A stretch of 64,000 bases of DNA, taken from assembly GCF_057098645.1 (NCBI RefSeq), contig NZ_CM169472.1; one strand, written 5' to 3'. Made by a program: the position numbers and the translations under genes. Every line of letters begins with the position of its first letter. Within the stretch, counting starts at the first letter, position 1. The notes under the pieces were generated by a model that was given only the letters and a program-made list of their open reading frames with translations, was not told where the DNA came from and made no database searches. Shown piece after piece: positions 19,549 through 20,699 of the stretch.

Positions 19549-20421
19549 ATGGATGCACCGAGTACCACACCGCATGACGCGGTATTTAAACAATTTTTAA
19601 TGCATGCGGAGACGGCTCGCGACTTTCTGGAGATACATTTGCCAGTGGAATTACGCGAACTTTGTGACCTCAATACGCTTCATTTAGAGTCGGGGAGTTT
19701 CATTGAAGAGAGCCTGAAAGGACACAGCACGGACGTGCTCTATTCCGTACAAATGCAGGGCAATCCCGGTTATCTGCATGTAGTGATTGAACATCAAAGC
19801 AAGCCAGATAAGAAAATGGCTTTTCGCATGATGCGTTATTCTATTGCCGCCATGCACCGGCATCTGGAGGCTGACCACGATAAGCTGCCGCTGGTGGTGC
19901 CGATACTGTTTTATCAGGGCGAGGCCACACCTTATCCGCTCTCAATGTGCTGGTTTGATATGTTTTACTCGCCTGAGCTGGCGCGACGCGTCTATAACAG
20001 TCCTTTCCCGCTGGTGGATATCACTATCACACCGGATGACGAAATCATGCAACATCGGCGGATTGCGATTCTCGAACTACTGCAAAAACATATTCGCCAG
20101 CGCGACTTAATGTTATTGCTGGAGCAACTGGTCACGCTGATTGACGAAGGGTACACTAGCGGAAGTCAGTTAGTTGCCATGCAAAACTATATGCTGCAAC
20201 GCGGTCATACTGAACAAGCGGATTTGTTTTACGGTGTGTTGAGAGACAGGGAAACGGGAGGGGAGTCTATGATGACGCTGGCGCAGTGGTTTGAAGAGAG
20301 GGGAAGACAGGAGGAAAGGCAAGAATTCGTCCTGCGTCTTCTGAATAAAGGAATGTCTCGGGAAGACGTTGCAGAGATGGCAAATTTACCCCTTGCCGAG
20401 ATTGATAAGCTGATTAACTAA
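19549..20421 (+). CDS. rpnC: Rpn-family (YhgA-like, PD-(D/E)xK) recombination-promoting nuclease
   Basis: 290-aa ORF MDAPSTTPHDAVFKQFLMHAETARDFLEIHLPVELRE... recognised as the E. coli YadD/RpnC family; it sits between panD and panC as in E. coli; the exact 5' start is uncertain. Confidence 0.85.
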   Translation: MDAPSTTPHDAVFKQFLMHAETARDFLEIHLPVELRELCDLNTLHLESGSFIEESLKGHSTDVLYSVQMQGNPGYLHVVIEHQSKPDKKMAFRMMRYSIAAMHRHLEADHDKLPLVVPILFYQGEATPYPLSMCWFDMFYSPELARRVYNSPFPLVDITITPDDEIMQHRRIAILELLQKHIRQRDLMLLLEQLVTLIDEGYTSGSQLVAMQNYMLQRGHTEQADLFYGVLRDRETGGESMMTLAQWFEERGRQEERQEFVLRLLNKGMSREDVAEMANLPLAEIDKLIN

Positions 20422-20489
20422 GTTGTCTGCATCATCAGTTATAGCCAGATAATTGTTATTGTTAACTGACCAGATAATTAAGGGAACCT

Positions 20490-20699
20490 ATGGAAATAAA
20501 GACACGGAGAGAAACCAGGCAGACGTTGGCGCAGTGGTTTGAAGAGAAGGGATTTCAGAAAGGATATCAAGAGGAACTCCAGAAGGTAAGACAGGAATTC
20601 GCCCAGCGTTTTCTAAGTAAAGGGATGTCTCGGGAAGACGTTGCAGAGGTGACAACTTTACCTCTTACAGAGATTGATAAGCTAATTAACTCTAACTAA
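20490..20699 (+). CDS. Small ORF (69 aa) paralogous to the C-terminal domain of the adjacent Rpn protein
   Basis: ORF MEIKTRRETRQTLAQWFEEKGFQKGYQEELQKVRQEFAQRFLSKGMSREDVAEVTTLPLTEIDKLINSN aligns with the last ~50 aa of the upstream gene (TLAQWFEERG...KGMSREDVAEMANLPLAEIDKLIN); AGGGA Shine-Dalgarno 4 nt upstream; the DNA is an imperfect direct repeat of 20275-20421. Confidence 0.55.
   Translation: MEIKTRRETRQTLAQWFEEKGFQKGYQEELQKVRQEFAQRFLSKGMSREDVAEVTTLPLTEIDKLINSN

Follow-up and report, generated by a model that had tools for sequence, protein, structure and literature searches.

The window, a 64,000-nucleotide stretch of DNA, contains a nuclease gene of the Rpn family whose 3' end is present twice, once as an in-frame segment with its own translation start and once as a separate small gene downstream. 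This arrangement raises the question of whether the locus encodes one toxin with two equivalent antitoxins, or whether the stand-alone copy has some other role. We conclude, with a probability of roughly 0.85, that this is the two-gene version of the E. coli chromosomal rpnC locus, with rpnC followed by rpnC_Ss, in which a gene-within-gene toxin-antitoxin pair is accompanied by a duplicated tail. The insertion site was published in 2017 and both the intragenic antitoxin and the downstream rpnC_Ss in 2023, and the finding as such is already known. What we add is that the resident tail (S) and the stand-alone tail (Ss) are almost never matched in length, and that tails are exchanged between the two positions. 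Reading of the sequence alone had recovered the published and non-obvious architecture of a gene within a gene together with its satellite copy.

An rpnC gene inserted in the pan cluster

The window derives from E. coli O145 and is 99.9% identical to the chromosome of strain RM9872 over positions 19276-20794. The genes are arranged in the order yadE, panD (- strand), rpnC (+), a small ORF (+), panC (-) and panB (-; 21658..22452), followed by fimbrial genes. The left flank of the insertion is formed by panD (18895..19275), which encodes aspartate 1-decarboxylase, and the right flank by panC (20795..21646), both identified by ORF calls and by the annotation of the RM9872 record. A GC-rich hairpin at 20760..20790, between the small ORF and the end of panC, is scored as the panC terminator on the - strand, and a search of 18800-21000 against Rfam returned no match.

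The original prediction placed a 290-residue Rpn (YhgA-like) ORF between panD and panCB, and this is borne out at 19549-20421 on the + strand. The protein matches PF04754 ('Transposase_31, YhgA-like') with an E value of 2.7e-87 (residues 7-207, model positions 1-201 of 203) and covers the whole of the Rpn family model TIGR01784 (positions 1-273 of 273; 268.8 bits against a cutoff of 52.1). It is annotated as rpnC (WP_000339956.1) in the RM9872 record. K-12 rpnC (yadD) occupies the same panD-panC locus, encodes identical residues 1-242 and has the same internal Shine-Dalgarno sequence and ATG-ATG pair (PMC10400941, PMC5350276), and the DNA over 19276-20300 is 98.1% identical to the K-12-type record. 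We assigned the catalytic residues by equivalence to D11, D63, E82, Q84 and R94 and the PDDE motif of RpnA, whose numbering is higher by one (PMC5350276). The corresponding D10, D62, E81, Q83, R93 and PDDE at 162-165 are all present, as in K-12 RpnC. Judged by its position between panD and panC and its high identity to K-12 RpnC, the window ORF is the RpnC orthologue. Overexpressed K-12 RpnC has DNA endonuclease activity, is toxic and induces the SOS response (PMC5350276); the full-length product of the window gene, RpnC_L, would likewise be a PD-(D/E)XK DNA endonuclease that is toxic and SOS-inducing when overproduced. A sequence search of the PDB with the 290-residue protein found no Rpn structure, and PADLOC had no model matching RpnC.

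The nuclease gene was also predicted to split the pan cluster in the way an acquired gene would. We surveyed one genome per species with PanD, placing panC and rpn by tblastn, and obtained 78 informative enterobacterial loci. In 68 of these, panC lies directly upstream of panD with no rpn gene between them (gap of 31-415 nt, median 98), and ten have an rpn gene in a panC-panD gap of 1190-1559 nt. Six of the ten are from Escherichia (86-99% identity) and two from Pseudocitrobacter (~70%), and the others come from Salmonella enterica subsp. diarizonae (62%) and an Enterobacteriaceae MAG. The survey supports the view that rpnC is an acquired insert in the pan cluster, as has been known since Kingston et al. 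2017 (PMC5350276), and it agrees with the two separate introductions between panC and panD that were proposed in that work.

Several of these loci differ in detail. The panC-panD rpn genes of L018 and L019 (Pseudocitrobacter), L020 (S. enterica diarizonae) and L034 are 62-82% identical to E. coli rpnC, and the Pseudocitrobacter rpn tail has four-residue repeats of its own (QQGM). Elsewhere in Escherichia, the species sampled have one tail only, again with the GGESMM internal start. In Escherichia sp. E1V33 (L011, 3545-3830) and E. albertii (L015, 2617-2840), ~200-280 nt of extra non-coding DNA lie between the rpnC stop codon and panC; this DNA is not a second tail copy.

An internal start within rpnC

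A Shine-Dalgarno sequence, GGGAGGGGAG, lies within rpnC at 20256..20265 (+ strand) and is the same in K-12. Its GGAGG core (20257-20261) precedes an in-frame ATG at 20269, codon 241, which is followed by a second ATG at 20272, and this is the sole in-frame start in rpnC that is preceded by GGAGG. The position, the ATG-ATG pair and a product of about 50 residues had been foreseen correctly, but the spacing had not: rather than 5-6 nt, it amounts to 3 nt when counted from where the purine run ends and to 7 nt when counted from the GGAGG core. The internal ORF, rpnC_S (20269..20421, +), begins MMTLAQWFEE and encodes the 50-residue putative antitoxin MMTLAQWFEERGRQEERQEFVLRLLNKGMSREDVAEMANLPLAEIDKLIN.

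The DNA around the internal start (20143-20299) is identical to the K-12-type sequence. RpnC_S is made in MG1655, as established by ribosome profiling and chromosomal SPA tagging (Zhong et al. 2023, PNAS, PMC10400941). In K-12, ribosome profiling gave initiation signals within all five rpn genes, rpnC included, and a dRNA-seq transcription start site is cited for an internal promoter (PMC10400941). Our own consensus scan found no sigma-70-like site on the + strand inside rpnC, its sensitivity being too low for this to be informative. From its sequence, the window allele is predicted to be translated from 20269 to give RpnC_S. The full-length rpnC start has a weak Shine-Dalgarno sequence (gggaag; 19529-19551), in contrast to the GGAGG at the internal start (20249-20271), and this difference fits the report of Zhong et al. 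2023 that RpnS levels exceed RpnL levels (PMC10400941).

The original prediction drew on the idea that small proteins translated from starts within the same gene hold Rpn nucleases in check, and this has been shown for K-12 rpnC itself (PMC10400941). RpnS proteins stop RpnL toxicity, SOS induction and DNA cleavage, and neutralization of L by S has been published for RpnA, RpnB, RpnP2 and RpnC, in the last case with an SOS assay (PMC10400941). By the published mechanism, the strong internal ribosome-binding site at 20256-20265 would drive in-frame translation from 20269 to yield RpnC_S, the last 50 residues of the nuclease, which would bind the identical tail of RpnC_L via a long helix and block the nuclease. 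The one gene would then encode both members of a toxin-antitoxin pair.

A stand-alone copy of the RpnC tail

The downstream ORF of 69 residues, rpnC_Ss (20490-20699, +), begins 68 nt after the rpnC stop codon. The spacer (20422..20489, +) includes the ribosome-binding site AAGGGA at 20480-20485, within the TAAGG/AAGGGA at 20479-20485 that lies 4 nt before the ATG. As had been proposed, this separate ORF with its own ribosome-binding site encodes a diverged copy of the same domain: S and Ss are identical at 38 of 56 residues (68%, E 1e-23), with two blocks of four residues as the only gaps, and the C-terminal positions 213-273 of TIGR01784 match the 69-residue protein with an E value of 2.8e-8. 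In the DNA, the two copies appear as direct repeats at 20308-20419 / 20580-20691 (112 nt, 85%) and 20274-20324 / 20522-20572 (51 nt, 78%). The likeness of the two tails is far above chance. The duplicated unit begins shortly before the internal start, ends ~12 nt beyond the stop codon and includes the start of the 3' flank, TAAGTTGTCTGC. The 69-residue gene probably arose by tandem duplication of the tail segment.

K-12 RpnC and the window share a tail plan, consisting of a TLAQWFEE box, four-residue repeats, a KGMSREDVAE box and a helix-turn-helix-like end. K-12 rpnC has one such tail (300-residue protein; four repeats, KGIE KGIQ QGRQ EVSQ) without a downstream small gene, whereas the window has a two-repeat tail in the gene and a four-repeat tail as a separate gene. 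The repeats of S are RGRQ EERQ, two units of 12 nt (20299..20322, +), and 17 residues lie between QWFE and KGMSR. Those of Ss are KGFQ KGYQ EELQ KVRQ, four units (20547..20594, +), in a linker of 25 residues, equal in length to that of K-12 RpnC_L, and a 12-nt tandem repeat was found within Ss at 20545-20569.

Zhong et al. 2023 named rpnC_Ss (PMC10400941), and the feature in the window equals theirs in position, strand and homology, with no structural difference. The rpnE-ypaA (rpnE_Ss) locus of E. coli K-12 also has a stand-alone Rpn tail copy directly downstream of its rpn gene, as in the window, and the phylogeny in PMC10400941 indicates that it stems from a separate duplication, in another paralogue. 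In a literature search for subsequent studies of RpnS, DUF4351 or rpnC_Ss, nothing beyond the 2023 paper and its commentary came up.

The stand-alone gene is probably co-transcribed with rpnC and would be translated from its own Shine-Dalgarno sequence. A promoter and terminator scan found no terminator between rpnC and Ss and no consensus promoter in the 20422-20489 spacer, both being uninformative at the low sensitivity of the scan. The AlphaFold2 prediction for Ss (pLDDT 72) consists entirely of helices, one long and then three that make up a short end. Its final ~38 residues superimpose on the RpnA_S crystal structure 7TH0 at 0.8 A (TM 0.77, normalized to 7TH0; 26% identity), a match that is non-significant by Foldseek (E 2.1, rank 20) and is equaled by many HTH domains. 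All Foldseek matches of the model in the PDB were non-significant and of HTH type. The predicted structure is therefore consistent with the three-helix RpnS fold and is not proof of it. A PDB search with a tail profile found no Rpn structure, its matches being a designed repeat protein and weak HTH hits. Pfam DUF4351 (PF14261), which labels separate RpnS genes in some species (PMC10400941), has no match in the 69-residue protein and reaches an E value of 0.04 in the tail of the 290-residue protein.

Prevalence and maintenance of rpnC_Ss

Of 5426 complete E. coli genomes, 1555 have the spacer and the 5' end of Ss, in each case as a single chromosomal copy. RefSeq/PGAP annotation of the same small ORF varies from a pseudogene fragment 'missing N-terminus' in RM9872 to 'hypothetical protein', 'RpnC/YadD family protein' and 'transposase' (ATCC 25922, H76) elsewhere. 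The instances compared include the ORF at 4245-4424 of L001.

The stand-alone ORF could be a non-functional remnant of a tail duplication or replacement that is drifting towards loss, in line with the call of an incomplete pseudogene in RM9872. Ss is missing from 71% of E. coli genomes and from the other Escherichia species sampled, and it has been lost repeatedly by deletion or fusion, as is also reported in PMC10400941. Its pN/pS is 4-5 times that of S (0.56 at the Ss end, 0.12 at the S end and 0.06 in the N domain, values that are indicative only and were taken over the last 23 codons for the tails). However, the Ss start codon, Shine-Dalgarno sequence and frame are kept in the 1555 genomes, at no less than 95% identity over the 5' region. 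The ORF is also intact in 58 of 61 uncut loci, which counts for little: it is short, slippage of the repeats preserves the frame, and the search pattern required the Shine-Dalgarno sequence and ATG. The pN/pS of Ss, still below 1, is likewise a weak point against decay. Weighing these observations, we consider it somewhat unlikely that Ss is a mere remnant.

Exchange of tails between the two positions

In contig L140 (1-420), the Ss position is occupied by the K-12 tail and 3' flank, the S tail upstream being a different one, and the sequence differs from the K-12-type L002 (2500-2766) at 4 of 267 nt. L106 combines a K-12-like S tail with a window-type Ss downstream, and strain EC581 (L007) has a single tail in which the head of S is joined to the end of Ss. 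As read from these junctions, tails move between the S and Ss positions. Because L140 bears the K-12 tail and 3' flank as a stand-alone Ss, the 300-residue K-12 RpnC is, on this comparison, a fusion of the N-domain to Ss that derives from a two-gene ancestor; a general statement in PMC10400941 allows K-12 RpnC as a fused form. The duplication had been proposed with the proviso that it would fall if the small ORF were simply the end of a longer yadD in reference strains. K-12 RpnC does end in an Ss-type tail, and the window still bears two separate tails, so that its interpretation as a duplication is upheld.

In the species-representative E. coli SCPM-O-B-8794 (L016, 3430-4080), the spacer is 25 nt shorter and S and Ss share GRQE-type repeats, a pattern suggestive of gene conversion from one copy to the other or of a separate duplication.

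The clearest visible effect of Ss may be that of a recombination partner. Crossovers in the TLAQWFEE and KGMSREDVAE boxes could remove Ss, join it to the N-domain (the K-12 arrangement) or carry tails from one position to the other. We tentatively propose, while regarding it as rather doubtful, that Ss serves as a non-cognate spare cassette, which recombination in the boxes would swap into the gene, or which as a free protein would neutralize an incoming non-self RpnC_L of matching length. Were this true, one swap would alter the helix length of RpnC_L and RpnC_S together, and hence their pairing specificity. The locus would then act as a two-slot diversification device for a toxin-antitoxin/defense gene, with phage or competition among rpnC alleles as the driving force. 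Confirmation of the length mismatch and of the exchange of tails would recast rpnC_Ss as a 'spare specificity module' instead of a 'second antitoxin', which bears on the diversification of Rpn systems, an open question according to Zhong et al. (PMC10400941).

Repeat number and the match between S and Ss

The original prediction took the intragenic and the stand-alone product as two candidate antitoxins, and the stand-alone protein might accordingly be a second functional antitoxin for the resident RpnC_L, giving extra or differently regulated protection. Its homology to S, its own Shine-Dalgarno sequence and ATG, its intact ORF and its pN/pS below 1 all fit such a role. The analogous RpnE_Ss (YpaA) is made in K-12, where the protein was detected by SPA tagging (PMC10400941). 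Against this reading stands the helix of Ss, which is 8 residues, or two repeats, longer than that of S and L in the window. The number of 12-nt (four-residue) repeats is reported to set helix length and so decide whether S fits L. For RpnC, S blocks SOS induction only if its repeat number equals that of L (PMC10400941, Fig. 4D), and a mismatch of one repeat, a +1 KGIE insertion in K-12 RpnC, abolished neutralization of RpnC_L (PMC10400941). By the published rule, the window Ss would be unlikely to neutralize the resident RpnC_L. The rule is known from K-12 RpnC +1 KGIE alone and may not reach tails with other repeat sequences.

We compared S and Ss lengths in two-gene loci drawn from E. coli genomes and from 58 metagenome contigs picked out by a 46-nt pattern taken from the Ss start. 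This census uses one exact DNA pattern that requires the Ss Shine-Dalgarno sequence and ATG, and its members are mostly metagenome contigs that are phylogenetically non-independent. Both tails are complete in 55 loci, representing 36 distinct pairs, with linkers of 17-45 residues in S and 21-45 in Ss. The two lengths are equal in a single locus (L106), where random re-pairing expects 2.1 (P = 0.32). We also considered active avoidance of matched lengths and rejected it, as these values indicate random pairing.

About one third of Ss alleles have a 6-nt (two-residue) deletion that changes KVRQEFAQRLL to KVRLAQRLL. Their linkers of 23 or 27 residues are off the four-residue register found in every S tail. 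The deletion is seen, for example, in L004, L009, L010 and metagenome loci such as L102, L113 and L129.

There is no sign of selection holding Ss matched to the resident L and S. Taken with the published repeat-number rule, the length mismatch indicates that the stand-alone copy is probably not a cognate backup antitoxin of the resident RpnC_L. The mismatch and the exchange of tails together argue against two equivalent antitoxins, and the absence of Ss from most E. coli genomes also counts against a second antitoxin, a role that we judge distinctly unlikely. The predicted pair of antitoxin-like products is supported for RpnC_S, as published in K-12, and is not supported for Ss as its equivalent, with two repeats against four in the window and one matched locus in the census. 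The main text of PMC10400941 is silent on whether the repeat numbers of S and Ss match within a genome, and the mismatch of resident and satellite tails is, the supplement of Zhong 2023 aside, the sole part of this analysis that goes beyond the accessible literature.

Family names and weak matches

The identity of rpnC as a transposase, or as an insertion sequence that had moved into the pan operon, with the downstream ORF as part of the mobile element, is suggested by the Pfam domain name 'Transposase_31', by a strong though sub-threshold match to the NCBIfam model 'ISNCY family transposase' (NF007418, 319.9 against a cutoff of 583) and by the insertion between panC and panD, but we rejected this identity as scarcely credible, since 19200-20900 contains no terminal inverted repeats and PMC10400941, finding neither terminal repeats nor target duplications, argues against a transposase function. 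The composition of the rpnC N domain (GC 0.46-0.52) gives no clear sign of recent foreign origin, and the tails alone are lower in GC (0.42-0.43). In PADLOC, the 69-residue protein (20490-20696) has a weak match near the C-terminus of RmrA (E 5e-4, positions 290-336 of the 357 in the profile).
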